Below, one piece after another: positions 15,421 through 64,000 of a DNA stretch of 64,000 bases (position 1 is its first letter; every line of letters begins with the position of its first letter). The notes under the pieces were generated by a model. It was not told the DNA's origin. It saw only the letters and a list, made by a program, of their open reading frames with translations, and ran no database searches. The position numbers were made by a program, and so were the translations under genes. Origin of the DNA: an uncultured bacterium (GTDB lineage: Bacteria; Desulfobacterota; BSN033; UBA1163); the NCBI GenBank assembly GCA_938045955.1, contig CALIBK010000105.1, forward strand, positions 5,187 through 69,186, in the 5' to 3' direction.

Positions 15421-15454
15421 CCACAGCCTCTCGCAACGCGCACGGTGCTAAGCG

Positions 15455-17698: not shown

Positions 17699-17707
17699 GG
17701 GTTAAAT

Positions 17708-18862: not shown

Positions 18863-18880
18863 GAATCCTCCTCCGAACCT

Positions 18881-20649: not shown

Positions 20650-20668
20650 CACCAAGACCTCCTCTTTA

Positions 20669-23173: not shown

Positions 23174-23179
23174 CTCCTC

Positions 23180-25030: not shown

Positions 25031-25033
25031 CTC

Positions 25034-42507: not shown

Positions 42508-42545
42508 CCTTCTCGCTCTTCCTCTCTATCCTAAAATTTTTTGAC

Positions 42546-43028: not shown

Positions 43029-43091
43029 GGGTTTACTCCGGATCTTAAACTAAATCGGCCGTTCTCTTATAAAGCGAACCCCCAGAGCAGT

Positions 43092-44117
43092 CTATTTCTC
43101 TTTTAGACTTAGACGCCCCAAAAGATGTTGAGCCTCGATCCATCTCTCCATCGGAATCTGGTTCTTTACACCTGCCATGAGAATTCCGTAACGGAGGAGA
43201 AGTCCTCCAAGGAGAAGGGAGATCCCAGCAAACCAGACGAGAGCGGGATATTCAGGGAATCTGGAGAAAAAGGATTCCAGAATGAAAGGGAAGAGGAATC
43301 CCGAGAAGACGATCCCTAACCAGAAAAGAAGTTTCAGCTCCCCTTTTAAAAGAAGAGAGACGGAAAGTCCTCCCTGTGCCCCCTGATCATTTGTTTGATT
43401 CACCCGGTAAAGATAAAGGACCAGAACGATCCCTTCGATAATGATCAGAATCTGTTCGACTCCCATTAAAAATTTTATGAGTGAAGAAGAAAAGATTCCT
43501 TGAAGAAGGGTTCTTCCCATCCCAAGGATAAGCATCAATAGACTCATTGAACCGGTAGAAAGAGCGGAAATAAGGAAAAGCAATGGAAGGAGATAGGTGT
43601 TCCATAGAGCTACATGTTTTACCGATTTGAGGAGGATTCCTGTATAGAGGGCCGTCGCGAAAGCAAGGATCAAGGCAACCGTTTCCAGTCCCCTTATCCC
43701 ATCTGTTCCTATATAAGTTCTTAAGTCAGGGGAGAGGGAAAGGATCAGACTGATCAATCCAAATAGAATGAATGAGGAAAGGATGAGAAAACCCCTTGCG
43801 ACCCAGGAGGTTTTGGGATTTAAACAGGCGTAAAGAAATCTCCGTTTTATTCCGAGGTCGAGAATGAGGAAAGGGGCCCCGATTGCAACCAGAACAGGAC
43901 CCCAGAGAAGGGTGGCTTTGGCAATATCCAACTGGAGGGTGAACGGACGGATCTCCATAAGCTTCGTTGAGCCCGTAAACCAATGGATCAATGTCCCGAT
44001 GATGAATGAACCAGCTCCCATCCCTGCCAGGTAGAGATAAATTGCAATGATCCAGCCCCAGTGATGCTGAGGCTTTAGATGTCTTCCGATTCTTGAAGAA
44101 TTGAAAGACCCCGTCAT
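43092..44117 (-). CDS. NrfD/PsrC-family polytopic membrane protein (quinone-interacting anchor)
   Basis: Start set at MTGSF (ATG 44117, AAGGAG RBS); an upstream ATG at 44147 lacks an RBS. About 8-9 predicted TM helices, NrfD-like N-terminal WGWIIAIYLYLAGMGAGS. Confidence 0.65.
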   Translation of the reverse strand: MTGSFNSSRIGRHLKPQHHWGWIIAIYLYLAGMGAGSFIIGTLIHWFTGSTKLMEIRPFTLQLDIAKATLLWGPVLVAIGAPFLILDLGIKRRFLYACLNPKTSWVARGFLILSSFILFGLISLILSLSPDLRTYIGTDGIRGLETVALILAFATALYTGILLKSVKHVALWNTYLLPLLFLISALSTGSMSLLMLILGMGRTLLQGIFSSSLIKFLMGVEQILIIIEGIVLVLYLYRVNQTNDQGAQGGLSVSLLLKGELKLLFWLGIVFSGFLFPFILESFFSRFPEYPALVWFAGISLLLGGLLLRYGILMAGVKNQIPMERWIEAQHLLGRLSLKEK

Positions 44118-44291
44118 TTTTGATTCCACTCCTTTAGAGCTTCCCATTCAAGTTCTTCCCAATGAACAGGCAAATTATCTTTAAAATAATAGCATATCTC
44201 ATTATCTTGTCAAGATTAAATAACCTGTTAATTCCCAGTTAAACCTGATTTGACAATTCAATTGAAATCGGGTATTCTTAATTTGTTCAAT

Positions 44292-45071
44292 ATGATGAAC
44301 AGGCTTAAAAAGACCATCTATTCTGCTCCATCGGTGAAAAAGGCCTTCCGGATCCTAAAGGCCATAGCCGATTCTCCATCAAGACTTGGGGTAAGTGAGT
44401 TATCGAAACAGCTCAAGATAGGTAAAAGTACGGTCCATGGGATCACTATTGCGCTGGAGGAGTTGGGGGTCCTGGTAAGGGATCCCATCGATAAAAAATA
44501 CAGTATTGGATACCGGCTGATAGAACTCGGGAGAAAGGCTTATGGAAGAATCGAATTGAGAGAGATAGCAAGAATCCCTTTAGAAAGATTGGTTGAGGAG
44601 ATTGGGGAAACCGTATTTTTAGGAATCATGGATGGAGATCATATCCTGATTCTGGACGTGGTGGAGCCTCCCAGTGAAATGAAGATTACCTCTCCACCCG
44701 GCACAAGGCTTCCCCTTTTAGCAGGCGCCACAGGAAAGGCCTTTCTCAGTCTCCTTGAAGAAGAGAAGGCAAAAGATATTGTTCAAAAGATCGGGTTAAG
44801 AGGTTATACCCATAAGTCGATCACCGACCCCAAGCGGTATTTAAAGGAGGTTAAAGAGACGAAAGAGAGAGGCTATGCGATTGATGATGAGGAGTACTTG
44901 ATCGGTGTTCGAGCCATTGCGGCTCCTTTACCTATACCTTCCTCTCCTCTTTCAGCCATCTGGCTCGTTGGATTCTCCTCGCGACTGACTGACCAAAAGA
45001 TGGAGAAGGCCATAAAAGAGATCCTTAAGACCGTCCAAGAAATCATCCATTCCTTTGAGATCTACTCCTGA
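44292..45071 (+). CDS. IclR family transcriptional regulator
   Basis: HTH LGVSELSKQLKIGKSTVHGITIALEELGVL followed by an IclR effector-binding domain; the ORF opens with a TTG at 44250, and ATG ATG at 44292 is a plausible start. Start uncertain. Confidence 0.7.
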   Translation: MMNRLKKTIYSAPSVKKAFRILKAIADSPSRLGVSELSKQLKIGKSTVHGITIALEELGVLVRDPIDKKYSIGYRLIELGRKAYGRIELREIARIPLERLVEEIGETVFLGIMDGDHILILDVVEPPSEMKITSPPGTRLPLLAGATGKAFLSLLEEEKAKDIVQKIGLRGYTHKSITDPKRYLKEVKETKERGYAIDDEEYLIGVRAIAAPLPIPSSPLSAIWLVGFSSRLTDQKMEKAIKEILKTVQEIIHSFEIYS

Positions 45072-48757: not shown

Positions 48758-51034
48758 TTACCTCTCTCTCTTTTCAAGGGCTTCGAGAACCTTATCCGGG
48801 GTCACGGGAAGGGTCTTAAACCTCACTCCTATTGCATCGTAGATGGCGTTCACGATAGCTGGAGCTGGAGAAAGCTGAGTTCCTTCTCCCGATTCCTTTG
48901 CTCCAAAAGGGCCTTCAGGATCATTTGTCTCCACCTCAATGGATTCAATTGAGGGAATCTCCATGGCCGTGGGGATTCCATAATCGAGGAAATTCGGATT
49001 GAGGACCTGGCCTTTCTCCATGATTATATTCTCATAAAGAGCCTGACCCATTCCTCCAACGACAGAGCCTTCTAACTGTCCTTCCACAAGCATTGGATTG
49101 ATCGCCTTTCCACAGTCGTGGGCAGTCACCATCTTTAAAACTCTAACTCTTCCCGTTTTTGGATCCACCTCTACCTCTGCGGCTTGGGTCATAAAGGAAT
49201 AAGCGGGGGAGAAGTTTCCATCCTCGTGAAGAAGGGTGGTTGGTTCCTTAGCCGGTGGAAAGTAGGATCCCCTTCCAATGATGGGCATGGGGCGATCGGA
49301 GTATTGATAGATCTTAATAGCCTCCTCAAATGAGAAACCACGATCAGGGTTCTCCCTCAAAAAGATTCTTCGATTCTTCATCTCAAGCTCGCCTGGACTT
49401 ACTTCCATCTTCTCTGCAATCGCTTCGAGAAGTTTCTCCTTTGCTGCCCGGGCTGCCATTCGGGCGGCATTTCCGGCCCTCAATGTAACACCGCTCCCAA
49501 AGGTTCCTGGATCGAGAGGAGTAATCTCTGTATCGGCCGCGGTAATTCGAATATCCTCAATTCGGACCCCTAACTCCTCAGCTACAATCTGGGAGATCAC
49601 CGTCTCTGCTCCCTGGCCAATATCCGCTGCCCCTGTTAGTAAAGTAACGGAACCATCTCTCTCGATCTTGACAATAGCGCCAGAGGAGATATGACTCATA
49701 TTGCTCACACCGCTTGGAAAACTGGCTCCAGCCAGACCCACTCCCCGTCCGAAAGGAAGTTTTCCTCTCTTTTCCCTCCACCCGATGGCCTCTGCGGCCT
49801 TCTTTAAGGTCTCACTGAACCCACAACTCTGAACCAGGAGTTTTGCTGGGTGAGGTTCTCCAGCCTGAAAGGCATTCTTTAGCCTGAGCTCAAGAGGATC
49901 GATCCCTATCTTTTCGGCGATGATATCGAGCTGAGTTTCTACCGCAAATCGAACCTGTGGAATTCCATGTCCCCTCATAGCTCCTCCGACAGGTTTATTC
50001 GTATAGACATGATACCCCTCAAAGAGAAGATTTTCGATACGATATGGAAGCATGATGAAGAAACAGGCCAGCGTGATCATCAGGGGGGCTGTGCTGTTAT
50101 AGGCTCCTCCGTCGGCAATGACTCTAAATTGCTGCGCAAGGATGGTCCCATCTTTTTTCACTCCCGTCTTTAAGTAGATATACATAGGATGACGTTGACG
50201 GGTACAGGTGAAGACTTCCTCTCGGTCATAGACAAACTTCACAGGCCTTCCGGTTCTCATGGCAAAGAAGGCTGCACAGAAGTCTTTGGCATAAAGATCA
50301 ATCTTCTGACCAAACCCCCCTCCCACTTTGGGTTTGATAATTCTCACTTTACTTTCCGGGAGATCGAGGGTGGTTGCCAGGTTCCTCCTGAGAAAGAAGG
50401 GAATCTGGGTAGAAGACCAGAGGGTGACTTTTCCAAAATGGTCCACCATGGCCAGAGCAGCCTGAGGCTCCATCGGGCAGTGATTCACAGGCTGAGTTTC
50501 AAAATGGTCCTCAAAAATAAAGTCAGAGTCTTTAAAGGCTTTCGCCACATTTCCAAATTCCTTTCGAATGGTGGCGCTCACATTATCAGGAACCTCTTCG
50601 TGAATGATGGGGGCCCCTGGTTTCATTGCCTCCAGAGGATCAAAGACCGCCGGGAGTTCTTCATATTCGACTTTTATCCTGGAGATGGCTTCTTCGGCTG
50701 CTTCAGGAGAGGTGGCTACCACCGCTGCCACTTCGTCCCCAATATAGCGAACCTTTTCAATCGCAAGGGCATACTCATCCTTTGCCTTCGGGACGATTCC
50801 ATATTTTCGTTTAGGGATGTCTCTGCCACTGATCGCATCTTTCACACCCGGAACTTTTAAGGCTTCTGTAAGGTCGACTTTAAGGATTTTGGCATGGGGC
50901 AGGGGGCTTCGAAGAATCTTTCCAAAGAGCATTCCCGGTAATGAAAGATCATCGGTATATTTTGCTTTTCCGGTTGCCTTTTCCCATGCATCAAGCATGG
51001 GTTCTCGTTTTCCAACCACATTAAACTCGCTCAT
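48758..51034 (-). CDS. xanthine dehydrogenase-family molybdopterin-binding large subunit (aldehyde oxidoreductase / 4-hydroxybenzoyl-CoA reductase alpha-like)
   Basis: Start chosen at MSEFNVVGKREPMLDA (ATG 51034, AGGAG RBS), the canonical family N-terminus. Family motifs GGGFGQK, AHDCGKAINP, and a C-terminal glutamate region. Confidence 0.8.
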   Translation of the reverse strand: MSEFNVVGKREPMLDAWEKATGKAKYTDDLSLPGMLFGKILRSPLPHAKILKVDLTEALKVPGVKDAISGRDIPKRKYGIVPKAKDEYALAIEKVRYIGDEVAAVVATSPEAAEEAISRIKVEYEELPAVFDPLEAMKPGAPIIHEEVPDNVSATIRKEFGNVAKAFKDSDFIFEDHFETQPVNHCPMEPQAALAMVDHFGKVTLWSSTQIPFFLRRNLATTLDLPESKVRIIKPKVGGGFGQKIDLYAKDFCAAFFAMRTGRPVKFVYDREEVFTCTRQRHPMYIYLKTGVKKDGTILAQQFRVIADGGAYNSTAPLMITLACFFIMLPYRIENLLFEGYHVYTNKPVGGAMRGHGIPQVRFAVETQLDIIAEKIGIDPLELRLKNAFQAGEPHPAKLLVQSCGFSETLKKAAEAIGWREKRGKLPFGRGVGLAGASFPSGVSNMSHISSGAIVKIERDGSVTLLTGAADIGQGAETVISQIVAEELGVRIEDIRITAADTEITPLDPGTFGSGVTLRAGNAARMAARAAKEKLLEAIAEKMEVSPGELEMKNRRIFLRENPDRGFSFEEAIKIYQYSDRPMPIIGRGSYFPPAKEPTTLLHEDGNFSPAYSFMTQAAEVEVDPKTGRVRVLKMVTAHDCGKAINPMLVEGQLEGSVVGGMGQALYENIIMEKGQVLNPNFLDYGIPTAMEIPSIESIEVETNDPEGPFGAKESGEGTQLSPAPAIVNAIYDAIGVRFKTLPVTPDKVLEALEKRER

Positions 51035-51115
51035 CTTAGATACTCCTGTATGGGTGATAAAGATTGTCATGAAGGACAGTGAATGATAAGAATTCACTCT
51101 TATTCACAATAGCCC

Positions 51116-51592
51116 CTATTCACCTCTCGATTCTCTCCCGCTTGCTGATAAAATGGCTTCGACAATCTTCACATAACCGGTGCATCGACAAAGGTTTCCA
51201 GAAATCGCCCTCTTTACCTCTTCCTCTGAGGGATGAGGATTTTCTTCTAAGAAGGCCTTTGCCGTAAGAATCATCCCTGGGGTACAGAAGCCACATTGGA
51301 TTGCTCCTTTTTCAATAAAAGCGTTTTGGAGAGGGTGAAGCTTACCATTCTGTGCCAGACCCTCAATGGTGGTGATCTTTTTCTTTTCCACAGCCACGGC
51401 CAGGGTAAGACAAGAAAGCCATGGCCTTCCATCCACAAGAACGGTACAGGCCCCGCAGGTCCCAAGATCGCATCCTCTTTTTGTTCCTGTCAGGCCAAGA
51501 TCCTCTCTTAAGACTTCGAGAAGGGTTTTATGACCTTCAACCAGGATTTCCAAATCCTCTCCATTTACGTTGAGTTTAAGAATACGTTTCAT
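51116..51592 (-). CDS. [2Fe-2S]-binding small subunit of XDH-family enzyme (CoxS/HcrC-like)
   Basis: ATG 51592 (MKRILKLNVNGE) with AGGAG RBS; plant-type ferredoxin motif CDLGTCGACTV and second cluster motif CGFCTPG...CRCTGY. Confidence 0.85.
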   Translation of the reverse strand: MKRILKLNVNGEDLEILVEGHKTLLEVLREDLGLTGTKRGCDLGTCGACTVLVDGRPWLSCLTLAVAVEKKKITTIEGLAQNGKLHPLQNAFIEKGAIQCGFCTPGMILTAKAFLEENPHPSEEEVKRAISGNLCRCTGYVKIVEAILSASGRESRGE

Positions 51593-51662
51593 AATCACTC
51601 CTGTATTTTCTCTCTTTCCCCATTCCTGTTCACTCTTAGTGTTTAAAATTTCGTTTCGAATT

Positions 51663-52640
51663 TCAATTTATCCACTTGAGTCTATCAAGCCCTTCTCGTA
51701 AAAGTATTCCGGCCATCTTTCTTTTATAGGCCGGGGAGTAGATAGACGTCCTCATAGGAGAAACCGTTTGAGGAACCTCCCGGGATAGAGAATCTATGAT
51801 GGAATCATCGAGGGTTTTTCCGATAAGCATCTTTTCAATTCCAGAAGCTTCTACTGGACCCTCTCCCACTCCGCTGAAGACCACCCTTGCCAGGCTTATC
51901 TTATTATCTTCTTTTTCAATATAAAGAGCTAATGAGACGATCGGGAATTCAATCGATCCTCTCCATCTCCATTTGAGGTAAACTCCTTTCCCGGAGGATT
52001 GAGGCACTATGACTTCTTTAATGATCTCTCCTTTCCTTAAGGAGAGGGGTTTTTTACCATTAAAAGAATAGAGTCTTTTTAGAGGAAAGATCCTTTCCCC
52101 TTGAGGACCTAAAACTTTAACCCGCGCACCCATTGCAATGAGAGCGGGAGCCAGATCTCCGCAATAGGTGGAATGACATTCCCTGGGCTTTTTTATGACA
52201 TGGCAGATCTCTCCTCCCGCCTTGAAGCAAGGGGGTCTTACGCTTCGCCAGAAAGGAGACTGATTATAGAAACGACATCGGTTCCCCTGACATAGGTTTC
52301 CTCCGACCGTTCCCATGACCTGATGGGCATAGGCTCCGACCTCTCTGGCTGCGTGAGAAAGAATCGAAAATTTTTCCTGAATCAAGGGGGAGGTATATAG
52401 ATCGCGAAGAGAGGTGAGTACCCCGATTCTTATCGCTTCTTTCTCTTCAATTATGTAAGAAAGTTTTGGAATGGATTTGAGATGAATAATTCTTGCGGGC
52501 GTTATGACTCCGAATTTCATATTCACCAGAAGATCTGTTCCTCCAGCCAAAAGGTAGGTTCCTGATGGATCAGCGGAAAGATTCTTTACCGCTTCTTTCA
52601 AGGATTTCGGTTCAATATATTCAAATTTTGGAAGTCGCAT
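51663..52640 (-). CDS. FAD-binding subunit of XDH-family enzyme (CoxM/HcrB-like) with Cys-rich insertion
   Basis: 325 aa; FAD-binding domain LLAGGTDLLVNMK; unusual six-Cys insertion GNLCQGNRCRFYNQSPFWRSVRPPCFKAGGEICHVIKKPRECHSTYCG. Confidence 0.8.
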   Translation of the reverse strand: MRLPKFEYIEPKSLKEAVKNLSADPSGTYLLAGGTDLLVNMKFGVITPARIIHLKSIPKLSYIIEEKEAIRIGVLTSLRDLYTSPLIQEKFSILSHAAREVGAYAHQVMGTVGGNLCQGNRCRFYNQSPFWRSVRPPCFKAGGEICHVIKKPRECHSTYCGDLAPALIAMGARVKVLGPQGERIFPLKRLYSFNGKKPLSLRKGEIIKEVIVPQSSGKGVYLKWRWRGSIEFPIVSLALYIEKEDNKISLARVVFSGVGEGPVEASGIEKMLIGKTLDDSIIDSLSREVPQTVSPMRTSIYSPAYKRKMAGILLREGLDRLKWIN

Positions 52641-52664
52641 CTTTTCTCTCCCAGAAGATTTAAA

Positions 52665-53966
52665 TCATTTGATTAAATTTGGCAAAATGAGGGCGAGTTT
52701 CGGGAAGAGGATTAATATTCCCGCATTAATCAACAGGGCTACCAGAAAAGGGAAGATCCCTTTAAAGATCGTCTCCAGAGGTATCTCGGGGGCAATTCCC
52801 TTGATGACATAGACATTGACTCCTACCGGCGGTGTAATCACACCCATCTCACTTACAAGCACAATAATCACACCAAACCAGATCGGATCAAATCCGAGCC
52901 TGAGCACGACAGGGAAAATCACCGGCACGGTGAGAACCACCAGGGCCATCGCATCCATAAAACAGCCCCCGATGAGATAAATCAGGATGATGACCCCCAT
53001 AATGGCAACAGGATGGAGAGGGAGCCCAGCAATCCAGTCCGCCAGAATAAAAGGGATCGTCGAGACTGCCATGAAGTGGCCGAATACCGTAGCCCCGGCA
53101 ATCACACAAAGAACCATGCAGGAGGTTCTCAGCCCATCCAGGGTTGAATCGATGAACCCCCTCAAACGGATCTCCCTCCTCATCAAGCCAATCCCCAAGG
53201 CTCCAGCAGCCCCAATCCCCCCGGCCTGGGTGGGTGTAAACCAACCGAGAAAGAGGCCTCCGATTACCAAACAGAAAAGAACCAGAGCTTCCCCTATCCC
53301 AATAAGAGCCTTCATCTTCTCTCTGAGAGTGGTCGAAGGACCTGCAGGAGCACATTCCGGCTTTCGCCAGCAGAGGATCCCCACCGTAAGAATGAAAAGA
53401 AAGACGAGGATTATCCCTGGAATGATTCCAGCCACGAAGAGCTTCCCGATGGATTGCTCCGTAATAATCCCATAGACCAGAAAGATTGTGCTCGGAGGGA
53501 TGAGAATCCCCAGTGTCCCCGCACTTGCCACACACCCTGTGGCCAGCGTATCATCATATTTATACTTTTTCATCTCCGGGAGGGCCATCTTCCCGATGGT
53601 AGCCGCAGTGGCAGAGGTTGAGCCACAAATCGCTGCAAAGAACCCACAGGCGACCACCGTGGCCATCGTTAATCCCCCACGAAGCCCTCCCAAGATCGTA
53701 TAGGCGGCTTCATAGAGCCTCCTGCCAATCCCTGAGGCAAAGGCAAAAGAACCCATGAGAATAAACATCGGAATTGCACTTAAAGGAAAGCTGAAAAACT
53801 GCTCGAAGAAATCTCGGGCAAGAAGTCTAAGCCCTGCCTTCAAGGTAGAAAGATACGAGAAACCCAGGAACCCCACAAAGGCCATTGCAAAGGCCACAGG
53901 CATTCGAATGAGAAAGAGCAAAACAAGCAAAAGGATTCCAAAGATACCCACATTAACGGGATCCAT
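52665..53966 (-). CDS. dctM: TRAP transporter large permease (DctM)
   Basis: ATG at 53966 (MDPVNVGIFGILLLVLLFL) matches the DctM N-terminus; the track begins at an upstream TTG. 12-TM profile. Confidence 0.85.
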   Translation of the reverse strand: MDPVNVGIFGILLLVLLFLIRMPVAFAMAFVGFLGFSYLSTLKAGLRLLARDFFEQFFSFPLSAIPMFILMGSFAFASGIGRRLYEAAYTILGGLRGGLTMATVVACGFFAAICGSTSATAATIGKMALPEMKKYKYDDTLATGCVASAGTLGILIPPSTIFLVYGIITEQSIGKLFVAGIIPGIILVFLFILTVGILCWRKPECAPAGPSTTLREKMKALIGIGEALVLFCLVIGGLFLGWFTPTQAGGIGAAGALGIGLMRREIRLRGFIDSTLDGLRTSCMVLCVIAGATVFGHFMAVSTIPFILADWIAGLPLHPVAIMGVIILIYLIGGCFMDAMALVVLTVPVIFPVVLRLGFDPIWFGVIIVLVSEMGVITPPVGVNVYVIKGIAPEIPLETIFKGIFPFLVALLINAGILILFPKLALILPNLIK

Positions 53967-54441
53967 CTCCAAAGACCTCAAAAAGGGATTCGATCGTCTC
54001 TATAAAGAAGACCAGACAGACAGGAAGGCAACAGAAGGCTATGAAGTAGGCAAATGGATAGTAGGGAAGGTGAGAGGTTGAACCGATCTCCCCAGCCTCT
54101 TGAAGAGACCTCCCGTAGAGAAGACTCTGCCAGAGAAGAAATACAAAAAGGATCAATGAAAGGAAAGAGCTGAAGCCACTGATCCCGGCCCGAATTCGCC
54201 TTGGAAAACGATCGAGAATAAATTCGACCCGAATATGTCGACCCATAAGAAGGGCCATGGCGATGGTCGAAGCAATCGCCATAATTTGAGAAAAACCGAT
54301 GAGCTCCGTCGCCCCGGGGACGGGCCAAAGAAAAAGTTTCGCCCCAATCACATCGATCAGATTCACCAGGAACATTAAAAGGAGCCCGATCAATCCCACC
54401 CATTCGAGGGATTGACTGAACCTCCTGGTCCACCCTTCCAT
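53953..54441 (-). CDS. dctQ: TRAP transporter small permease (DctQ)
   Basis: 162 aa, 4 TM helices, positioned between dctP and dctM; overlaps dctM start. Confidence 0.7.
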   Translation of the reverse strand: MEGWTRRFSQSLEWVGLIGLLLMFLVNLIDVIGAKLFLWPVPGATELIGFSQIMAIASTIAMALLMGRHIRVEFILDRFPRRIRAGISGFSSFLSLILFVFLLWQSLLYGRSLQEAGEIGSTSHLPYYPFAYFIAFCCLPVCLVFFIETIESLFEVFGDGSR

Positions 54442-54526
54442 GAATGAAACCTCTTGATAGAGGATTCTTGTAGCCTTTCCCTTTCTCCTTTCTTGCTACA
54501 AGGAGAAAGGGAAAGAATCGCGATGA

Positions 54527-55594
54527 TTATTTGATGCGAACTTCGGAAGGACCGGTTGAGGATTTCACTCCCAACTCTTTCTGCTTCTTCGTCCAATACT
54601 CGATCCGCATTCGAGCATAATTGATCAACTCCCGGGTCTCTTTCTCCGAATATCCCGCTGCCACCATCGATTTCACATACTTGTCCAATACAGGCTCCAC
54701 CGCCTTTTTCCACTTGGTAATCTCCTCACTCGGAAGCTCAATGAATTGCAGACCCTTTTCCTTTCCATACTGCTTTCCATCAATGTCCACCTCATTCCAC
54801 ATCGTCGCCAGCTTCTCCTCAAAAGGATATTCACTCAATATCTTTTTCAGCTCCGGTGAAAGTTTGTTCCAGGCCTCCTTATTCATAATCAAATAAAAGG
54901 TATAGACCTGACCGATCGGCCAACACTCCGTTACATATTTAGCCACCTCTGCATACCGAAAAGCCCTCATCGTCTCCATCGGAATCATTAATCCATCGAT
55001 CACCTTCTTCTGCATCGCTTCATAGGCTTCAGGGGTAGGAATGGGTCGAGGGGTTGCCCCCAGGGCTGTGACCACTTCTGCTATAAAACCCAGGCCCCTT
55101 AACGTCATCCCTTTTAGATCCTCCATCTTGTAGACTGGCTTTGTGGCTGAAAGGACGACATTGACAGGACTTGTATGCATCGAAAGTATATGAACCTTAT
55201 CCCATTCCTTCGGCTTAAATTCTCTGATAAAATCATTGGCCACATGATTAGCCACCCAGGCATTCGGAAACCCCAGAGGGAGATCCAGGGTTTCGGTCAT
55301 CCGGAAGCGCCCAAAGGTATAACCAATGTTGGAGAAGCCAATGTCCGCAATCCCTTCAACCACCCCATCATACATTTTCGGGGCCGTCAACAGGGTCCCT
55401 GCCGGAAAATAACGAATCTTTAATTCTCCTTTGGAGCGGGCCTCCAGATCCTTGATGAATTCCTCACAGATCTTGGACTGCCGAGCAGGAATCGGAAAAT
55501 AATTGCAGAATTTTAACTCCACGGCTCCCCAAACAAAGGAAGGCAAAACCATCACGAAAAGAATGAATCCAACGAGCAGTCTCTCCTTTTTCAT
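54527..55594 (-). CDS. dctP: TRAP transporter solute-binding protein (DctP family)
   Basis: Start set at MKKERLLVGFILFVMVLPSFVWGA (ATG 55594, AAGGAGGTG RBS); DctP-family fold. Confidence 0.8.
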   Translation of the reverse strand: MKKERLLVGFILFVMVLPSFVWGAVELKFCNYFPIPARQSKICEEFIKDLEARSKGELKIRYFPAGTLLTAPKMYDGVVEGIADIGFSNIGYTFGRFRMTETLDLPLGFPNAWVANHVANDFIREFKPKEWDKVHILSMHTSPVNVVLSATKPVYKMEDLKGMTLRGLGFIAEVVTALGATPRPIPTPEAYEAMQKKVIDGLMIPMETMRAFRYAEVAKYVTECWPIGQVYTFYLIMNKEAWNKLSPELKKILSEYPFEEKLATMWNEVDIDGKQYGKEKGLQFIELPSEEITKWKKAVEPVLDKYVKSMVAAGYSEKETRELINYARMRIEYWTKKQKELGVKSSTGPSEVRIK

Positions 55595-55955
55595 ATGAAA
55601 TCCACCTCCTTTTTGAATTTTATCCATCCTAAAAATTTTTAATTCGTAATCTTATTCCTCCTCACCTCCTTTCCGGATAAAGGCCTGTTCAATAACCCAC
55701 AAATCATTGTGAGACAGGATTTCGCAGGGACATCAATTTTTTATTTATCGCAGTCTGTCATTCCGTGCTGGACACGGATTCCAGGGCTTCCCATGAAAAC
55801 GGGAATCCAATTCCTAATATTTCCCTGACTTCGCACCTCGTACTTGATACGGGGCTGAATTCCTGCTCCCTGCTTAAGACCTGCAGTGACAATTTTCACA
55901 GGAATGACGCCTTAAACCCCCTCTGTTATTGGAAACCTCAGAGAAGGTTTCCTCC

Positions 55956-57647
55956 TTAGGGTTTGATTTTTCCTTCTTGAATCAACTTTTCCGTGATGAT
56001 CTGCTTCAACCTTTTTTTATCCACTTTTCCAACGTTGGTCAAGGGGAATTCGTTCAGAATTTCAATTCGTTCAGGGAGATAGATCACGGAAGTTTTCTTA
56101 TCCTTTAAGAAGGAGATGATCTCTTCAAAAGTGATCGTTTCCTCCGTTCGGGGTTTGATGAAGGCACAGATTCGTTCCCCAAGGATAGGATCGGGCATGG
56201 GAACCACCGCCACTTGCTCGATCTTGGGATGGCCGATCATTAAATTCTCCACTTCTTTTGCACTGATATTCTCCCCGCCTCGAATGATGATCTCCTTCTT
56301 CCGACCTGTAATGATCAAATGACCTTCCCGATCAAATTTCGCAATGTCCCCGGTTCGATAAAACCCGTCGGGGGTAAAGGCCTCTCGATTTTCCTCTTCA
56401 GATTTATAATAACCTCGAAAGATACAGGGCCCTCTGGCCACCAGCTCTCCCTCTGTTTCGGGCGGGAGGAGATTTCCATGGGAATCGATCACTTTAAATT
56501 CATCATAGGGGCAGATGGGCCACCCTACCGTGTGAAGGACGATCTCTTCCGGGTCTTCCAATCGGGTCTGAGAGCATGGACCTTCGGAGCTGCCATAGAC
56601 ATTATAAAATTTACATTTTAATTTTTTATAAATTTTTTTAATCGTTTCAGGAGGGATAGAAGAGCCTCCGGTAGCGATCACATGAAGAGAGGATAGATCG
56701 TACTGGTCGAGTTCAGGTGAATCCACAATCTGTTGGACCTGAGCCACTGCGAGGATGGTCGTCGTAATCCTCTCCCTCTCAATGGTCTCCAGTATGTCTT
56801 TAGGATGGGTGGAGGGAATGATGACCACTTTTCCCCCCGTAAGGAGGGTGGGATTTAAGGAAACCTCGATGGCCATGTTATGAGTGAGGGGGGTTGCAAT
56901 TAGGGTAATATCGTGAGGGCTCCGCTGCCATGCCTTAGCCCGGTATTCTATATTGCAATAAAAATCGTTATGGGTCCTCGGGACTAATTTTGGAAATCCA
57001 GTCGTTCCCCCGGTAGGCATCAAATGACATATTTCATTCGGGTCGGGTTTAAAAGATTCAAGATAATCCTCTGGATATTTGCTCGGATCGACTTCGGCTA
57101 AAATTTTATTGAAGGATATTGTTCCCTCGGGGATCGATTTCCCTTTCTCCTGAGATGAGTCGATGACTAAAATATATTTTAATGAATAAGGATGAGATTT
57201 TATGGCAGAAATGATGGGTTGATAATCTATCTTTTCAAACCGAAGGGGAACGATCCAGGCCTTCGCCTCAGTGATTTCGCAGAAATATTCTATCTCCCTC
57301 TGAGAAAATCGAGGAATACACATGACAGGAATTGCCCCGATTTTGTGAAGCCCATAATATGCAAAAACAAATTCGGGCCAGTTCGGGATCTGAAGAAGGA
57401 CTCGGTCAAATTTCTCGATGCCTAACTCGAGAAAGGCAAGGGCTGTGCGGTTGACCTTTTCTTGAAGTTCCCGATAGGTGAGTCGAACGCTGCCGGCGAC
57501 AAGGGCCTCCTTATAAAAATAGAGATCGGCACTCCGGTCAAGCATTTCTCCGAGAGTGATTCCCAACCACCAGTGATTTTTGTAGTATCGCTCAACAAAT
57601 TCTTCTGGAAATGGAATGGTTCCGGGTAAGGTCATCGAAGTGACCAT
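55956..57647 (-). CDS. AMP-dependent synthetase/ligase (aryl-CoA ligase-like; 2,3-dihydroxybenzoate-AMP ligase / cyclohexanecarboxylate-CoA ligase family)
   Basis: 563 aa; AMP-binding motifs MPTGGTTGFPKLVPRTH, YGSSEG, and a C-terminal lysine region (GKVDKKRL). Confidence 0.8.
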   Translation of the reverse strand: MVTSMTLPGTIPFPEEFVERYYKNHWWLGITLGEMLDRSADLYFYKEALVAGSVRLTYRELQEKVNRTALAFLELGIEKFDRVLLQIPNWPEFVFAYYGLHKIGAIPVMCIPRFSQREIEYFCEITEAKAWIVPLRFEKIDYQPIISAIKSHPYSLKYILVIDSSQEKGKSIPEGTISFNKILAEVDPSKYPEDYLESFKPDPNEICHLMPTGGTTGFPKLVPRTHNDFYCNIEYRAKAWQRSPHDITLIATPLTHNMAIEVSLNPTLLTGGKVVIIPSTHPKDILETIERERITTTILAVAQVQQIVDSPELDQYDLSSLHVIATGGSSIPPETIKKIYKKLKCKFYNVYGSSEGPCSQTRLEDPEEIVLHTVGWPICPYDEFKVIDSHGNLLPPETEGELVARGPCIFRGYYKSEEENREAFTPDGFYRTGDIAKFDREGHLIITGRKKEIIIRGGENISAKEVENLMIGHPKIEQVAVVPMPDPILGERICAFIKPRTEETITFEEIISFLKDKKTSVIYLPERIEILNEFPLTNVGKVDKKRLKQIITEKLIQEGKIKP

Positions 57648-59135: not shown

Positions 59136-60203
59136 ATGATGACCCGAAAGGAATTTCTTGAGCAGGTCATGAAGATGGCAAATCTTCGGGATTTAAAACA
59201 GGCGGACGAGGCTACACGGGCGGTGATTTCACTTACTAAATTAATTATTGGACCAAAGCTATCTCAGAAGATTGCAGAAGTTTCTCCCCCCGATCTCAGG
59301 ATAGGATGGGAAGCCATTCAGCCTGCCTACCCGAAGAAATCCATCAAGATTATTACAGGTCCCGGGGGTGAGGATGAAGATATTCGGCAGGTGGTTCCCT
59401 ATCTTCAAAAATACCTCGGGGTAGAGGTGGTCATTGAACATATTGTTGGTTTCTGGGGAAGGATTCCTTTCGAAAAATTTCAGACCACTGATCCTGATGG
59501 ATATACCTTAATGTGCTATACCTTCCCGAGGAGTATCATGATTGAACTTACGGGGGAAAGCCATTTTAAGACCAGAGAGTTTACCCCCATTTTTGCCTGG
59601 TCCTCTGGAAATCAATTCTTAGTGGTTCCCTCTGAGAGGTTTAAAACGTTTGATGAATTTATAAAGGAAGCTAAAACCCGGAGGTTTTCCGCAGCCATTC
59701 CTGTTAAAAGGGGGATCAGCCATTTGTCTGGATTATTGTTTTCCGAAGGGTTGGGGATTCAGGTGGATTGGATCCCTTACGGGGGATTGGCTTCAAGTAT
59801 GGCCGCCCTGAATCGGGGAGAGGTTGATTTTATGATCTCCTTGGCGAATGCTCTTCCTACTTATATGAAAACGGGCAGGATAAAGGTCCTTGCGATGCTT
59901 CCTGAAAAGTCAGGGAAACGATGCCCTTATTTTCAACATATTCCTTCCATTAAGGAACTCGGATACGATATTCCGATGATCACAGTTCGACACGTGTTGG
60001 AGGCTCCACCCAATACTCCCGCTCATATTGTAATGGTTCTCGAAGGGGCGCTCAAGCGGGCGATTCAAGGACCTACCTATCTGGAGTGGGCGAAGAGGAA
60101 CTTCGTCAATATTGAGCCTCTGGACGTTAGGGCTTTTTCACAGGAGAAGGAGGAAGCCTATACTAAGATAGAAAGAGTGAAAGAGAAGTTCGGAGAGGAG
60201 TAG
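59136..60203 (+). CDS. cytoplasmic fusion protein: DUF2267-like N-terminal helical segment + TctC/Bug-family (tripartite tricarboxylate transporter receptor-like) domain, no signal peptide
   Basis: ATG ATG at 59136 with AGAGGAGG RBS and upstream sigma70-like promoter. N-term MMTRKEFLEQVMKMANLRDLKQADEATRAVISLTKLI resembles the DUF2267 consensus. Residues about 65-355 carry TctC hallmarks (YPKKSIKIITGPGG..., TDPDGYTL). Confidence 0.55.
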   Translation: MMTRKEFLEQVMKMANLRDLKQADEATRAVISLTKLIIGPKLSQKIAEVSPPDLRIGWEAIQPAYPKKSIKIITGPGGEDEDIRQVVPYLQKYLGVEVVIEHIVGFWGRIPFEKFQTTDPDGYTLMCYTFPRSIMIELTGESHFKTREFTPIFAWSSGNQFLVVPSERFKTFDEFIKEAKTRRFSAAIPVKRGISHLSGLLFSEGLGIQVDWIPYGGLASSMAALNRGEVDFMISLANALPTYMKTGRIKVLAMLPEKSGKRCPYFQHIPSIKELGYDIPMITVRHVLEAPPNTPAHIVMVLEGALKRAIQGPTYLEWAKRNFVNIEPLDVRAFSQEKEEAYTKIERVKEKFGEE

Positions 60204-60226: not shown

Positions 60227-62281
60227 TTATAGGGATGGATCTTCCATTGCCTTTTCCAAAAGTTCAGCTATATCATAAACCTTCACGGAATCCTCCTTTC
60301 TTCTGGCCTTGAGGCCATCCTCGAGCATCGTTAGACAATAGGGGCAGGCTGTGATAATCTGATCAGGTTTAAGAGCCAGTGCCTGATCCACACGCATTTC
60401 ATTGATCCGCTTCCCGAGATGTTCCTCCATCCACATCCTGCCCCCTCCGCCTCCGCAGCAGAAGCTTTTAGAGCGAGTCCTTTCCATTTCCTGAAGTCTT
60501 ATTCCGTGGAGGGTGGTTAGGATTTTCCTCGGTTCTTCATAGATTCCATTATATCGACCCAGATAACAAGAATCATGATAGGTGACAGTGATCGGACTTC
60601 CCTTTTTTAGGGAGAGCCTTTCTTCCTGAAGGAGCCGGGCGAGATACTCTGTGTGATGGATGATTTCAAAAGAACCCCCAAATTGTGGGTATTCATTCTT
60701 TAAGGTATTGAAACAGTGGGGACAGGAAGTAAGAATCTTCTTCACCCCGTATTGTCTCAAGGTCTGAATATTGGCCTCTGCCAAATTTTTAAAGAGATAT
60801 TCATTGCCGATCCTCCGGACGGATTCACCACAACATCCTTCTTCTTTACCCAGAATTCCAAACTTCACCCCTGCACGCTTAAGGATTCGAGAAAGCGAGA
60901 TGGCCACCTTTTTACTTCGGTCATCATAACTCTTGAAACATCCGGGGAAGTAGAGGATCTCCACCTCTGGATCCTCAGGAAAGGATTTTACTCCTAATAG
61001 GGAAGCCCAATCTGAACGAAGATGCCTTTCGGCACCCCATGGATTGCTCCTCCTTTCCAGATTTTTGAATACCTCCCTTACTTCTGTGGGATACCGAGAT
61101 TCCATCAGGACCAGATATCGTCTCACCTCTATAATTTTGTCATAAGCAGAAATAAAAACCGGACATTGTTCGTAACAATTGAGGCAGAACGTGCATGCCC
61201 AGAGAGCCTCTTCAGAAAGGAGTTCATTGAGAGAAGGATCCTCTGTTGCAGAAAAGGAAGGATTCCAGAGAAGCCTCCTTCCTTTTTCATGGAGAAGGGT
61301 TCTAAGGTCTTGAATAACCTTTTTGGGAGACAGGGGCTTTTGGCTCAGATAGGCAGGGCAGTGCTCCTGACATCGTCCACAATTGGTACAGGCCTCAAGA
61401 TCCAAAAGTTGCTTCCAAGAAAATTCAAAGAGGTTTTTCACCCCGTAAGTCTCGGCCTCCTCGAAATCAGGAATGGGAGAGAGGGCTCCTTTCAGGGTGA
61501 GAGGGCGGAAAAATATATTGAGAGGAGATAAGAAGAGATGCTGGAGAGAGGAGTGGCTGAGGGTAATATAGAAGAACAGGAATAGAGCAGGAAGGGCATG
61601 GATGAAGATTCGATGCCATATAAAAAGTTCATTCAAAAGGTCTGTTGAAAAAACAGGGAGGAGACGGGAGATGGGATAACTAAGGGGTGCCCAGGAGAGC
61701 CACTCGGGAGGGGGAAGAGATCCAGCTACAGCCATTCGGTACCCCTTTATGAGAAACCCTGTGATCAAAATTCCAAAACCCCAGAGGAAGATCAAGGTCC
61801 TATCGGGTTGGGTTTCCAGACGATAAGGTCTAAAAAGGTACCTACGAATTACGGCAAGAGCACCCCCAATGAGAACCAGCCCCCCTCCCATCTCGGAAAC
61901 AAAGGAGGAGTATAAAAATATGGATTGAGGGGGATCGGTTAATCCAAATGGGAGAGAGAAGAGCCTGATAAATTTACCTAAAAAGATGAGCATCATTCCC
62001 CAGAAGATTAAAATATGCATGAGTCCAGAATATCCTTTTTTCCAGAATCGGGAATGGGTCAGGGTAGTCATGAGAAGGGTTTTAAGTCTGAAAGCTACAT
62101 CGCCTGTTCTCCTCTCATCCTTTCCAGAGTGCCAGAGTCGATAATGGAATTTCCAGAAAAAGAAAAGAAAGAAAGCCATCAAAAAAGGGAGAAGGATTAG
62201 AAAACCGAGGAGAATCGGGGAAAATATCTCCTTGATATAAAAATGTTGAATTTTCCAGAATTGAAGCGTCGAGCCTTCCAT
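60227..62281 (-). CDS. membrane-bound Fe-S oxidoreductase: N-terminal polytopic cytochrome-b-like (HdrE/NarI-like) domain fused to 2x[4Fe-4S] + double CCG (HdrD-like) domain
   Basis: 684 aa; about 6 TM helices with conserved His (LMHILIFWG; IWHRIFIHALPA), then CTNCGRCQEHCP / CTFCLNCYEQCP and CCG domains (CPHCFNTLKNEYPQ; DSCYLGRYNG; CCGGGGGRMW; CPYCLTM). Confidence 0.75.
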   Translation of the reverse strand: MEGSTLQFWKIQHFYIKEIFSPILLGFLILLPFLMAFFLFFFWKFHYRLWHSGKDERRTGDVAFRLKTLLMTTLTHSRFWKKGYSGLMHILIFWGMMLIFLGKFIRLFSLPFGLTDPPQSIFLYSSFVSEMGGGLVLIGGALAVIRRYLFRPYRLETQPDRTLIFLWGFGILITGFLIKGYRMAVAGSLPPPEWLSWAPLSYPISRLLPVFSTDLLNELFIWHRIFIHALPALFLFFYITLSHSSLQHLFLSPLNIFFRPLTLKGALSPIPDFEEAETYGVKNLFEFSWKQLLDLEACTNCGRCQEHCPAYLSQKPLSPKKVIQDLRTLLHEKGRRLLWNPSFSATEDPSLNELLSEEALWACTFCLNCYEQCPVFISAYDKIIEVRRYLVLMESRYPTEVREVFKNLERRSNPWGAERHLRSDWASLLGVKSFPEDPEVEILYFPGCFKSYDDRSKKVAISLSRILKRAGVKFGILGKEEGCCGESVRRIGNEYLFKNLAEANIQTLRQYGVKKILTSCPHCFNTLKNEYPQFGGSFEIIHHTEYLARLLQEERLSLKKGSPITVTYHDSCYLGRYNGIYEEPRKILTTLHGIRLQEMERTRSKSFCCGGGGGRMWMEEHLGKRINEMRVDQALALKPDQIITACPYCLTMLEDGLKARRKEDSVKVYDIAELLEKAMEDPSL

Positions 62282-62292
62282 TTTTTCCTTGA

Positions 62293-62526
62293 TCAGAGAA
62301 CATGATGTAAGCGTGGGTAGAATGTAAACAGATGGGCGATCAGAAAGGAAAGAACCATTCCCCCAATAATCAGTAAGGAGATCCTTAAAAATTTTTTATA
62401 TTTTGGGTCCAACCCGAGGTCAAAAAGGATGAGTCTGATAGCCACAAGAAAGGAGTATAAAAAGGCCGTCAGTAAGATTAATTCCAAAGATATAGCCAGA
62501 GGTCTAATAACATCCTCCGTCATCAT
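62293..62526 (-). CDS. small two-TM membrane protein (HmcD-like position)
   Basis: 77 aa, two hydrophobic helices; start overlaps stop of upstream NrfD-like gene. Confidence 0.4.
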   Translation of the reverse strand: MMTEDVIRPLAISLELILLTAFLYSFLVAIRLILFDLGLDPKYKKFLRISLLIIGGMVLSFLIAHLFTFYPRLHHVL

Positions 62527-63716
62527 GATTGCTCCGTGATTGCCTTGGGATCTTCCTTTTCAATGAGAGGAAGGAGTTCCAAATACCTCAATCCAAGGAC
62601 AAAAAACAAACCCATCATAGAGAATATTCCCAGACACAGGAAAAGTTCAATAACGGTGATAGGAAAGATTCCTGCTTGACCCCACACCCCTTCGATCCTT
62701 CCGGGATAGAAAGGCATCGGAAGGGCCGTCCCCGGGATCACCAATGTATATCTCTCAAAGAAGATCCCGATAACGATTAAAGAGGAAGCTACCATCAGAC
62801 CTTTTATTGTTTTTCGAACTTCAGGAAGACTTAATAATAAAATGGGGAGAATGTACCCGCATCCCACCTGGAATCCCCAGAATAATCGGGCAAAGGGACC
62901 TGTAAGAAGCCAGAGAGTTGGTTCTCGATGGGGGGAGTAAAGGTGGGTTAATTTATCTATCAGGACGAAGACGACTAACGTGATCGTCAACCCTAAAAGT
63001 AATTTAGCCAGGGAGAAAAAGGGTTCTTTCCAGTATCGTCTTTTTGCAAAATGGAAGGCGGAGATGACGACGATCATCAGAAGGGCCAATCCGGAAGCCA
63101 TGGCTGCAGCCACAAATTCGAAGGGTTTTATGGGAGAATAAAAAATCGGCCTGGCTATAATAAAGCCAAAGATTGCTCCAGTACCCATATGGACCATGGA
63201 AGCCCAGATGATGGCCAATATCCCTATCTTTTTAGCCCACTTTTGATTGTTCGCCAGAATGAACCCAAAATAAAGAAAGCTTATCACAAAGTATCCTCCA
63301 TACAGGATCCCATTGAGAGCGAACATCGAGCGCATATTATTTAAGACAAAAAACATGAAGAGACGCCACATCTTTTCAGGTCTTCCGAGATCCATGGAAA
63401 TTCCGACCATAGCTCCGAAGATCAGGACAATGGCAAGAAAGACAGCAATCCGCGAGATCAGGCGATATTCTTCTCGACCAAAAACATAGGTCAAAGAAGA
63501 GAGAATGAGAGATCCTGCGCTCAAGCCGATGAGAAAGATAGTCATGATGATGGGCATCCCCCAGGGGATCCGATTACTCATTCCGAAGACCTGATGCCCA
63601 TGAATATAACTGACCACAAAGCAAACGAATCCTATAATCGAAAGAGCTGAAAGAATTACCAGAACCAGATAGTAATTTCGAGACTGGAATTCAACAGGAG
63701 TATAGATCAGTTTCAT
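62523..63716 (-). CDS. NrfD/HmcC/DsrP-family polytopic membrane protein
   Basis: 397 aa, about 10 TM helices, NrfD-like N-terminus; directly downstream of a 4Fe-4S protein gene. Confidence 0.65.
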   Translation of the reverse strand: MKLIYTPVEFQSRNYYLVLVILSALSIIGFVCFVVSYIHGHQVFGMSNRIPWGMPIIMTIFLIGLSAGSLILSSLTYVFGREEYRLISRIAVFLAIVLIFGAMVGISMDLGRPEKMWRLFMFFVLNNMRSMFALNGILYGGYFVISFLYFGFILANNQKWAKKIGILAIIWASMVHMGTGAIFGFIIARPIFYSPIKPFEFVAAAMASGLALLMIVVISAFHFAKRRYWKEPFFSLAKLLLGLTITLVVFVLIDKLTHLYSPHREPTLWLLTGPFARLFWGFQVGCGYILPILLLSLPEVRKTIKGLMVASSLIVIGIFFERYTLVIPGTALPMPFYPGRIEGVWGQAGIFPITVIELFLCLGIFSMMGLFFVLGLRYLELLPLIEKEDPKAITEQS

Positions 63717-63726
63717 TCAAATTCCC

Positions 63727-64000
63727 TTATCTTGTCAGGTAGTAGACCTTTGGCTTGGTCTCGAGCTCGTCTCGAAGTCTGAACCAGATCCGTGATGAGA
63801 GGAGACGGCAAACCTCGCTCGTTAGATCGTCTAAATCTCCAAATGTTCTTGCGCAGGAAGGGCAGCTCTCCACACAGGCCGGCACAATTTCTATTCCAAT
63901 CTTTTTTCCTTCCTTTATCCCCTGATCGATTCGATGGAAACAGAAATTACACTTTTCCACCACCCCATGGGTCCGCTTTGGGAAGGGCCAGCTCCCTCGA
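63727..64000 (-). CDS. 4Fe-4S ferredoxin-type protein (HmcB/DsrO/HybA-like), C-terminal part; partial, continues beyond window end
   Basis: Frame remains open to nt 64000; C-terminal motifs CNFCFHRIDQG and CVESCPSCARTF. Confidence 0.6.
   Translation of the reverse strand, partial: RGSWPFPKRTHGVVEKCNFCFHRIDQGIKEGKKIGIEIVPACVESCPSCARTFGDLDDLTSEVCRLLSSRIWFRLRDELETKPKVYYLTR

Follow-up and report, generated by a model that had tools for sequence, protein, structure and literature searches.

An EMO/EtfD-type oxidoreductase encoded with NrfD-family and four-cluster iron-sulfur subunits in a conserved membrane redox operon

The four-gene operon and its products

The 64-kb stretch of bacterial DNA analysed here (the window, whose positions are used for the gene coordinates below) ends in four consecutive minus-strand open reading frames (ORFs) between 60227 and 64000. 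They encode an iron-sulfur (FeS) protein of the 4x[4Fe-4S] type, an NrfD-family integral membrane subunit, a 77-aa protein with two transmembrane (TM) helices and a 684-aa fusion protein which, as shown below, belongs with the ETF:menaquinone oxidoreductases (EMO) and EtfD, where ETF stands for electron-transferring flavoprotein. These four genes and their types had been proposed from the nucleotide sequence in an earlier note on this DNA (the original prediction), and all four ORFs are present at the minus-strand positions of Table 1, with Pfam and hydropathy in agreement. The genes are separated by a gap of 10 nt, an overlap of 4 nt (ATGA) and a gap of 11 nt, and this spacing leads us to read them as one operon.

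Table 1. Window positions of the operon genes and of the domains of the fusion protein
Feature	Position	Strand	Basis or remark
4x[4Fe-4S] (FeS) gene, NrfC/PsrB/DsrO/QrcC-type	63727..64000	-	3' part, codons 139-228 of 228
NrfD-family integral membrane subunit, 397 aa	62523..63716	-	PF03916
77-aa two-TM subunit	62293..62526	-	start overlaps NrfD stop (ATGA)
EMO/EtfD-type fusion, 684 aa, whole gene	60227..62281	-	similarity to M. smegmatis EtfD 9OJN
NarI/HdrE-like heme-b membrane domain, aa 1-260, 5 TM	61502..62281	-	hydropathy, conserved His
Two-cubane [4Fe-4S] region	61097..61429	-	Fer4_8, Fer4_9, Fer4_10 over residues 293-376; Cys invariant
HdrB-like double-CCG non-cubane-cluster domain	60302..60964	-	CCG PF02754 twice

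The sequence and the predicted fold of the 684-aa protein point in the same direction. Among solved structures its best match is EtfD of M. smegmatis (MsEtfD, 9OJN; phmmer E=2.9e-107, 363 bits), and the match spans both the membrane and the soluble parts. An AlphaFold (AF2) model made from 79 sequences (pLDDT 75.5, pTM 0.66), used here since a model from a 12-sequence alignment was unusable (pLDDT 53.9), is matched by Foldseek to 9OJN with E=2e-33 and a TM-score of 0.81 over 735 columns, while the next matches, HdrB and LutA, cover the CCG part only. Pfam finds the CCG domain (PF02754) twice (2.8e-39) together with a 4Fe-4S dicluster domain. Five TM helices are predicted by hydropathy within residues 1-240, with an N-out/C-in topology by the positive-inside rule, and five long helices are seen in the model, TM I and TM IV being followed by short connecting ones, as in the EMO of Syntrophus aciditrophicus (SaEMO). 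Five TM helices with the N-terminus outside are also described in the 2026 SaEMO cryo-EM preprint and in the EtfD paper.

The cofactor sites are conserved as well. The heme ligands given in the EMO structure paper, H87 and H251 (proximal) and H233 (distal), are matched by H89 (62015-62017), H248 (61538-61540) and H228 (61598-61600), respectively; all three are conserved in 149/149 full-length homologues, and H89 and H248 also align with histidines of MsEtfD. H522 of the CPHC motif (60716-60718) is invariant among the same 149 homologues and is the counterpart of Sa H534 and Ms H583. The EMO/EtfD structure papers describe the histidine of this C-P-H-C/G motif as filling, at the proximal non-cubane cluster, the site for thiol binding; the CPHC of EMO-type proteins corresponds to CNGC in HdrB. 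Based on the match to 9OJN in sequence and fold, the invariant heme histidines and the CPHC histidine, the 684-aa protein is of the EMO/EtfD type, i.e. a cytoplasmic non-cubane domain and two cubane clusters wired to heme b. The matches to NCBIfam models all stay below their cut-offs (the C-terminal part of TfrB, TmcB, DsrK, HmcF and, weakly, the membrane part of QmoC). More than 7,798 homologues were found; the identity is 43% to an etfBA-adjacent Smithella protein and 39-44% to those of Syntrophaceae and Desulfosporosinus. The original prediction had likened the fusion to the oxidoreductase encoded next to etfAB in syntrophs (SYN_02638-like) and had looked to heme-ligating histidines in its N-terminal domain. 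The homology to the solved EtfD and EMO, the identity with the Smithella protein and the presence of H89, H228 and H248 bear this out.

Several residues set the protein and its closest relatives apart. The fusion has ten HdrB-type cysteines (C448, C483, C484, C520, C523, C572, C608, C609, C646 and C649), all of which are kept in 68/68 members of the clade described below. In other EMOs, by contrast, position 484 is often T or N or position 523 often G, and one ligand position is G in SaEMO and T in MsEtfD. Residues invariant specifically in the clade include H46 and H76, on the cytoplasmic side, K103, and P117-P118 in a periplasmic GLTxPPQ loop. K103 follows the proximal heme ligand at a distance of 14 residues, just as A101, beside the second distal heme, does in SaEMO; by this ungapped spacing K103 would correspond to A101.

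The window holds only the 3' part of the FeS gene. The source contig (L001; ENA ERZ6863514, 70.7 kb) reaches past the window end and covers the operon start, and the full ORF (L001 2039-2725) encodes 228 aa beginning with MVRWAMTIDLDKCTGC; in window numbering the gene would extend to approximately 64413, and no in-frame start lies further 5' on L001. The protein has neither a signal peptide nor a TM helix, and all 16 cysteines of its four [4Fe-4S] motifs are present, with Fer4_11 recognised by Pfam in the window part. Its NCBIfam scores are 209.7 bits for QrcC, 207.6 for DsrO (cut-off 200) and 81.7 for HmcB (cut-off 420). The match to the DsrO model begins at profile position 42, the signal-peptide region being absent, and because the DsrO cut-off is passed so marginally, automatic pipelines may call this protein DsrO in contexts that are not Dsr. 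The nearest solved structures are PsrB (2VPW_B), ArrB (6CZ7_B) and ActB. The NrfD-family protein (PF03916, 4.6e-42) has about 10 TM helices as judged from hydropathy and the positive-inside rule, and no redox cofactor motifs. DsrP is its best NCBIfam model, with 106.5 bits below a cut-off of 350, and its nearest solved structure is ActC (6F0K_C).

On L001 the FeS gene is preceded by a 420-bp AT-rich spacer and then by divergent genes for GAF, cyclic-nucleotide (cNMP)-binding and GYD proteins. The genes beyond the window end had been singled out for checking by the original prediction, which named a canonical DsrMKJOP or Qmo context there as evidence against it. Such a context is not present on L001, nor is any gene for a cytochrome c, DsrJ or a catalytic subunit 5' of the FeS gene; regulators are found instead, and the operon is thus taken to consist of four genes with the FeS gene first. 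A scan for promoters and terminators yielded nothing beyond a weak TTGACA-17-TATTTT site about 90 bp 5' of the FeS start on L001, and the match counts were not clearly above those of shuffled controls.

The 77-aa protein has two TM helices by hydropathy and matches nothing above the Pfam threshold. An alignment of 58 distinct homologues shows invariant residues at R8, E15, D36, G38, K42-Y43, A64-H65-L66 and F69-Y70-P71. With the predicted N-out/C-out topology, H65 in TM2 would be near the periplasmic face, where the distal hemes of EMO are situated, and it may therefore help to bind a distal heme. There is a weak resemblance to the heme-binding helix region of SdhC cytochrome b556 (NCBIfam E=1.5e-4, Pfam E=3.5e-3), and since this similarity is sub-threshold the protein is placed in no family. 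Some relatives encode it as an N-terminal fusion with the EMO-like protein (e.g. P0028 and P0065, 765 aa), which indicates that it is a dedicated partner of the EMO-like membrane domain.

Gene partnership in the clade and loss of a molybdopterin subunit

To place the operon among its relatives, 80 loci from species genomes, 80 from metagenomes and 8 found by exact look-up were gathered, and their neighbouring genes were mapped by tblastn. In a neighbour-joining tree of 149 homologues the window protein belongs to a clade that is monophyletic and has a Dehalococcoidia sequence as its outlier. The clade set comprises 74 loci with at least 54% identity, spread over several phyla (Thermodesulfobacteriota, Dehalococcoidia, Thermodesulfovibrionales). 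Counting only loci with sufficient upstream DNA, the 77-aa gene is present in 64/64, the NrfD gene in 43/43 and the FeS gene in 38/38, which makes NrfD and the 4x[4Fe-4S] protein obligate partners within this EMO clade. The remoter homologues (35-47% identity) are either classic EMOs adjacent to etfBA or actinobacterial EtfD-like genes without such neighbours. We found no description of a cluster of EMO-like and NrfCD genes in the searchable literature, and neither the NrfD review (PMC8076601) nor the two papers on the EMO and EtfD structures mention one. The pairing thus seems to be undescribed, and the form described below, devoid of a molybdopterin subunit, adds a further twist.

An additional gene for a 165-aa ferredoxin of the 2x[4Fe-4S] type may be inserted between the NrfD and 77-aa genes (e.g. 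L004 7214-7711); it occurs in 13/50 clade loci, and the N-terminus of the ferredoxin carries a twin-arginine-like motif (SRREFLK) without a hydrophobic h-region.

In most of the clade the operon is longer. A molybdopterin oxidoreductase (MopB) of 768-799 aa is encoded 5' of the FeS gene in 20/24 clade loci with at least 5.2 kb of upstream DNA (examples are L084 5458-7785 and L085 5519-7858). All 28 complete MopB copies have a twin-arginine motif, RR[TKRE]F[LI]K, and the FS0 cysteine motif. At the position of the Mo-ligating Cys193 of Shewanella ArrA, 27 of them have Asp and one has Glu. The nearest structures are ArrA (6CZ7, E=2e-103) followed by PsrA (2VPW), and the scores on the NCBIfam ArrA model reach 400-434 bits against a cut-off of 1600; this Asp-type ArrA-like MopB appears to be an uncharacterised MopB family. 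As the MopB of the relatives is exported by twin-arginine translocation (Tat), the FeS protein without a signal of its own is, in those genomes, a typical Tat hitch-hiker, and the periplasmic half of the module is Psr/Arr/Qrc-like. The module in the window descends from such a five- or six-gene cluster led by a Tat-exported ArrA-like MopB.

The loci devoid of MopB form one subclade, consisting of the window (L001, L002), L166 (85% identity) and L167, L083 and L086 (73% each), of which L167 is syntenic with the window on both sides of the operon. The sister lineages L087 and L168 (67% identity) still carry the MopB gene. All four remaining genes are intact across at least four MopB-less lineages that have diverged down to 73% identity. 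Between the window and L166 the ratios of nonsynonymous to synonymous substitution (dN/dS) are 0.078 for the FeS gene, 0.083 for NrfD, 0.122 for the small protein and 0.115 for the EMO-like gene, with dS values of 0.6-0.8. When columns with at least 95% conservation in 32 MopB-containing orthologues were inspected, 2/120 in the FeS protein and 0/119 in NrfD were altered in the MopB-less subclade. Hence, the window lineage has lost the MopB gene, and the other four genes are under purifying selection.

A search of the 64-kb window for Tat-motif ORFs and MopB orthologues was negative, the sole match being a cytoplasmic NuoG/Fdh-like protein with 22% identity. With four genes under selection and no Tat partner visible, the module is best described as functional but incomplete as seen. 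Either a partner that carries a Tat signal, encoded at another site, takes the FeS protein out, or the role of the periplasmic end is no longer the same.

Genomic surroundings and the cytoplasmic electron donor

Both solved family members, SaEMO and MsEtfD, accept electrons from an ETF, and ETF genes recur in the clade. An etfB-etfA pair lies directly 3' of the EMO-like gene in six clade loci (L130, L132, L137, L142, L144 and L145) and within a few kb of it in four (L085, L097, L118 and L106), and one ETF subtype, 90-95% identical, recurs in both the adjoining and the nearby arrangements. An independent cluster on one strand of L150 (1121-10974) encodes TetR, EtfB, EtfA, a multiheme cytochrome c (323 aa), an FeS protein (201 aa), an 8-TM NrfD (298 aa), a Tat-MopB (774 aa), a NapC-like cytochrome c (187 aa) and an EMO-like protein (657 aa). 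This cluster corresponds to the window module but contains cytochromes and is linked to an ETF.

The ETF genes of the window belong to a different setting. An ETF/Hdr/Nuo cluster lies on the minus strand at 13486-26661, at a distance of about 34-40 kb from the module. It comprises genes for a soluble HdrD-like protein (382 aa, 25513-26661), NuoE-like, NuoF-like and NuoG/Fdh-like (834 aa) proteins, EtfB, EtfA, an acyl-CoA dehydrogenase, a GltD/HdrA-like protein (747 aa) and an HdrA2-like protein (644 aa). The cluster looks like a soluble ETF-linked (con)furcating system. Its etfBA genes (18881-20655) match the EftB, AcrAB and FixAB-like models best in NCBIfam. The motif of the soluble HdrD-like protein is CPHG, as in SaEMO (Gly for the last Cys), and the protein shares 38% identity with the soluble part of the 684-aa fusion. 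From about 10 to 26 kb the GC content is 0.51-0.54, compared with 0.42-0.48, and the GC skew is strongly negative.

On the 3' side of the fusion gene, a convergent gene for a TctC-like protein follows at a distance of 23 nt. This TctC-family (Bug-like) protein (59136-60203, plus strand) has no signal peptide and begins with a DUF2267-like stretch, and its gene is convergent with the EMO-like gene also in L166 and L167. Beyond it, on the minus strand at 48758-57647, are genes for a 359-aa lipoprotein, an AMP-forming ligase, a TRAP transporter (DctPQM) and a trio resembling 4-hydroxybenzoyl-CoA reductase, which consists of a 779-aa protein (777 bits against a cut-off of 995), a 160-aa 2Fe-2S protein and a 325-aa FAD subunit. 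This block is syntenic with L167 and suggests that aromatic or organic-acid catabolism is encoded beside the module. A second NrfD-family gene (351 aa; 43092-44147, minus strand) is followed by genes for a 160-aa Fer4_11 FeS protein (42546-43028) and a MoeB/ThiF-type adenylyltransferase (41764-42507, minus strand), and is flanked by a divergent IclR regulator gene (44250-45071); no catalytic subunit gene adjoins this second locus (41764-44147) either.

Proposed electron path and comparison with known systems

The reading we favour, with slightly better than even confidence, is that of a menaquinone-linked transmembrane module which links a donor flavoprotein in the cytoplasm, probably an ETF, with an FeS/NrfD end on the periplasmic side. 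In such a module a reduced cytoplasmic flavoprotein, likeliest an ETF as for the solved EMO and EtfD, would give single electrons to the non-cubane clusters, and from there they would travel over both cubane clusters and the proximal heme until reaching the distal heme or hemes on the periplasmic side. Exchange with the NrfD/FeS pair could then make use of menaquinone/menaquinol or take place directly, and depending on the direction the module would be driven by, or generate, proton-motive force. The redox loop of S. aciditrophicus, in which EMO, methylmenaquinone and a periplasmic formate dehydrogenase take part, works either way (PMC8805022), and the scheme proposed here would be a built-in version of this Syntrophus loop between EMO, menaquinone and a periplasmic enzyme. 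With its two membrane subunits it would also recall the design of DsrMKJOP and Hmc.

Several observations weigh against this reading. Concerning the donor, no etf gene adjoins the module in the window, the nearest etfBA being about 40 kb away, and these genes are just 35-47% identical to every EMO-associated ETF type and are grouped with a soluble HdrD-like protein of their own and with NuoEFG/HdrA-like genes. The mycobacterial EtfD is likewise encoded without adjacent etfBA, so adjacency is no strict criterion for the family. Of the two claims made on this point by the original prediction, the soluble HdrD-like protein within an ETF/Hdr/Nuo cluster is real, at the position given above, while the idea that the module serves the ETF of this locus remains unproven in view of the distance, the different ETF subfamily and the separate HdrD-like protein. 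In 23/58 clade loci an 860-aa GlcD-FeS-CCG fusion is encoded downstream instead of an ETF, and the cytoplasmic donor may accordingly differ between members. Concerning the chemistry, the full set of ten HdrB-type cysteines is retained here but in neither of the solved EMOs, which leaves some room for thiol/disulfide chemistry. Finally, without a signal on the FeS protein and without a Tat-motif ORF or MopB in the window, the periplasmic half cannot be assembled from the visible genes, and a physical complex of the four proteins would follow from gene linkage and fusions only.

A stronger proposal is that the clade represents an undescribed Dsr/Hmc-like complex, in which the EMO-type protein would be physically joined to NrfCD via the 2-TM adaptor, and electrons from beta-oxidation (via ETF) or from 2-hydroxyacids would be hard-wired to periplasmic chemistry. 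We put this forward tentatively, as possible rather than probable. If it holds, the complex takes the place of a loop of diffusible quinone between separate enzymes, and in most members its periplasmic end is a new Asp-type ArrA-like molybdoenzyme, while in the MopB-less lineage it is some other partner.

Loss of MopB could instead have left the FeS and NrfD proteins idle, with the EMO-like protein alone working as a stand-alone ETF:menaquinone oxidoreductase. Stand-alone EMO/EtfD enzymes do function without such partners, and the absence of MopB from the window and its nearest relatives, the missing export signal of the FeS protein and the lack of a Tat-motif ORF in the window would all be in line with a relic. 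We nevertheless consider this unlikely, since at least four lineages, diverged to 73% identity, still have all four genes intact, the FeS gene shows the lowest dN/dS among these genes (0.078), the loss was followed by changes in only 2/120 conserved FeS columns and 0/119 NrfD columns, and the tight operon spacing has been retained. A similarly small chance is given to the view that an EMO-type enzyme and an unrelated NrfCD quinol module are co-transcribed from a shared promoter, with neither a complex nor a dedicated loop between them. It is true that the known EMO loop uses the free methylmenaquinone pool and a separately encoded periplasmic enzyme (PMC8805022), and that the contact between subunits is read from linkage and fusions, not directly. 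Mere co-transcription does not, however, sit well with the strict co-occurrence in 74 loci from several phyla, or with a 2-TM protein that is encoded between the two halves, translationally coupled to NrfD and in some genomes fused to the EMO-like protein; the separate clade of L150 has the same association.

The cysteines and the gene order also invite comparison with sulfur respiration. In a true Hmc/Dsr-type complex the CCG domain would reduce a DsrC-type (tri)sulfide or another heterodisulfide with menaquinol or periplasmic electrons, and the ten retained cysteines, the order HmcB-C-D-E/F, the FeS protein narrowly above the DsrO cut-off (207.6 against 200 bits) and the NrfD protein scoring highest against DsrP could all be explained in this way. 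The profile scores are otherwise far too low (DsrK 64.6 against 400, HmcF 55.5 against 750, DsrP 106.5 against 350 and HmcB 81.7 against 420), in contrast to the 363 bits of the EtfD match. The DsrO match lacks the signal-peptide region (it starts from profile position 42), there is no gene for DsrJ or HmcA and no dsr gene in the window, and the CPHC histidine, which occupies the thiol-binding site in the solved EMOs, is invariant here where HdrB has CNGC. Taken together, this makes sulfur respiration of the Hmc/Dsr type very improbable. The claim of the original prediction that the gene order parallels HmcB-HmcC-HmcD-HmcE/F is correct, with E and F fused, but orthology with Hmc or Dsr does not follow from it: the HmcF, HmcB, DsrK and DsrP scores and the lack of HmcA and DsrJ speak against it.

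The favoured reading, a menaquinone-linked module from flavoprotein to periplasm, is of interest beyond this locus. EMO/EtfD is the recently solved link from fatty-acid beta-oxidation to the menaquinone pool, both in syntrophs, where it matters for methane production, and in mycobacteria; in the Syntrophus model its periplasmic counterpart is encoded separately and the two are coupled by a reverse redox loop. A clade that spans several phyla and has the EMO-type protein and a periplasm-facing NrfCD in one operon offers a genetically defined system in which to ask whether redox loops can be hard-wired, and it raises the question of what reaction occurs at the periplasm. The combination of the ten-cysteine set with the EMO histidine is relevant to the way in which heterodisulfide reductases came to be repurposed for transferring electrons. 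The MopB-less form is a puzzle in itself, as a strongly conserved, cofactor-loaded periplasmic subunit is kept with no export partner visible.

Compared with known systems, the closest similarity is to EMO/EtfD, with which the 684-aa protein shares a single polypeptide, a 5-TM NarI-like heme-b domain, two cubanes, a double CCG domain, three heme histidines and the CPHC histidine. It differs by its separate clade, the ten cysteines and H46, H76, K103 and P117-P118, and its gene always stands behind those for the FeS, NrfD and 2-TM proteins, usually also behind a Tat-MopB gene, with no adjoining etfBA in the window. HdrDE of Methanosarcina follows the same domain logic, with a heme-b membrane part, cubane and non-cubane clusters and ten cysteines, but it is made of two polypeptides, its HdrB-type sites are CNGC and not CPHC, and its substrate CoM-S-S-CoB is not expected in a bacterium.

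The module also has features in common with larger conduits. HmcABCDEF of Desulfovibrio has the same order of module types, from a four-cluster FeS protein through an NrfD-like and a small hydrophobic protein to cytochrome b and an HdrD-like protein, and likewise follows the logic of a conduit that spans the membrane and carries redox modules on either face; the present module lacks HmcA, its FeS protein has neither a signal peptide nor a TM anchor, and in the relatives MopB occupies the first position. DsrMKJOP is likewise built around two membrane subunits, a NarI-like cytochrome b paired with an HdrD-like protein and an NrfD-like subunit paired with a four-cluster FeS protein, and the DsrO and QrcC models give the FeS protein of the operon nearly equal scores. 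DsrJ, a dsr context and a signal peptide on the FeS protein are missing here, and the two CCG motifs carry the EMO-type histidine. Among PsrABC, ArrABC, QrcABCD and alternative complex III (ACIII), the FeS protein is nearest to PsrB, ArrB and ActB and the NrfD protein to ActC. With the MopB-FeS-NrfD (CISM-type) complexes the module shares a signal-less four-cluster FeS protein and an NrfD anchor; the window lacks the MopB, that of the relatives has Asp for the Mo-ligating Cys, and none of these known complexes has an EMO-type subunit. Judged from these similarities, the module is by architecture a putative Hmc/Dsr-type conduit, whose cytoplasmic half is by descent EMO/EtfD and whose periplasm-facing half is predicted to be Psr/Arr/Qrc/ACIII-like.

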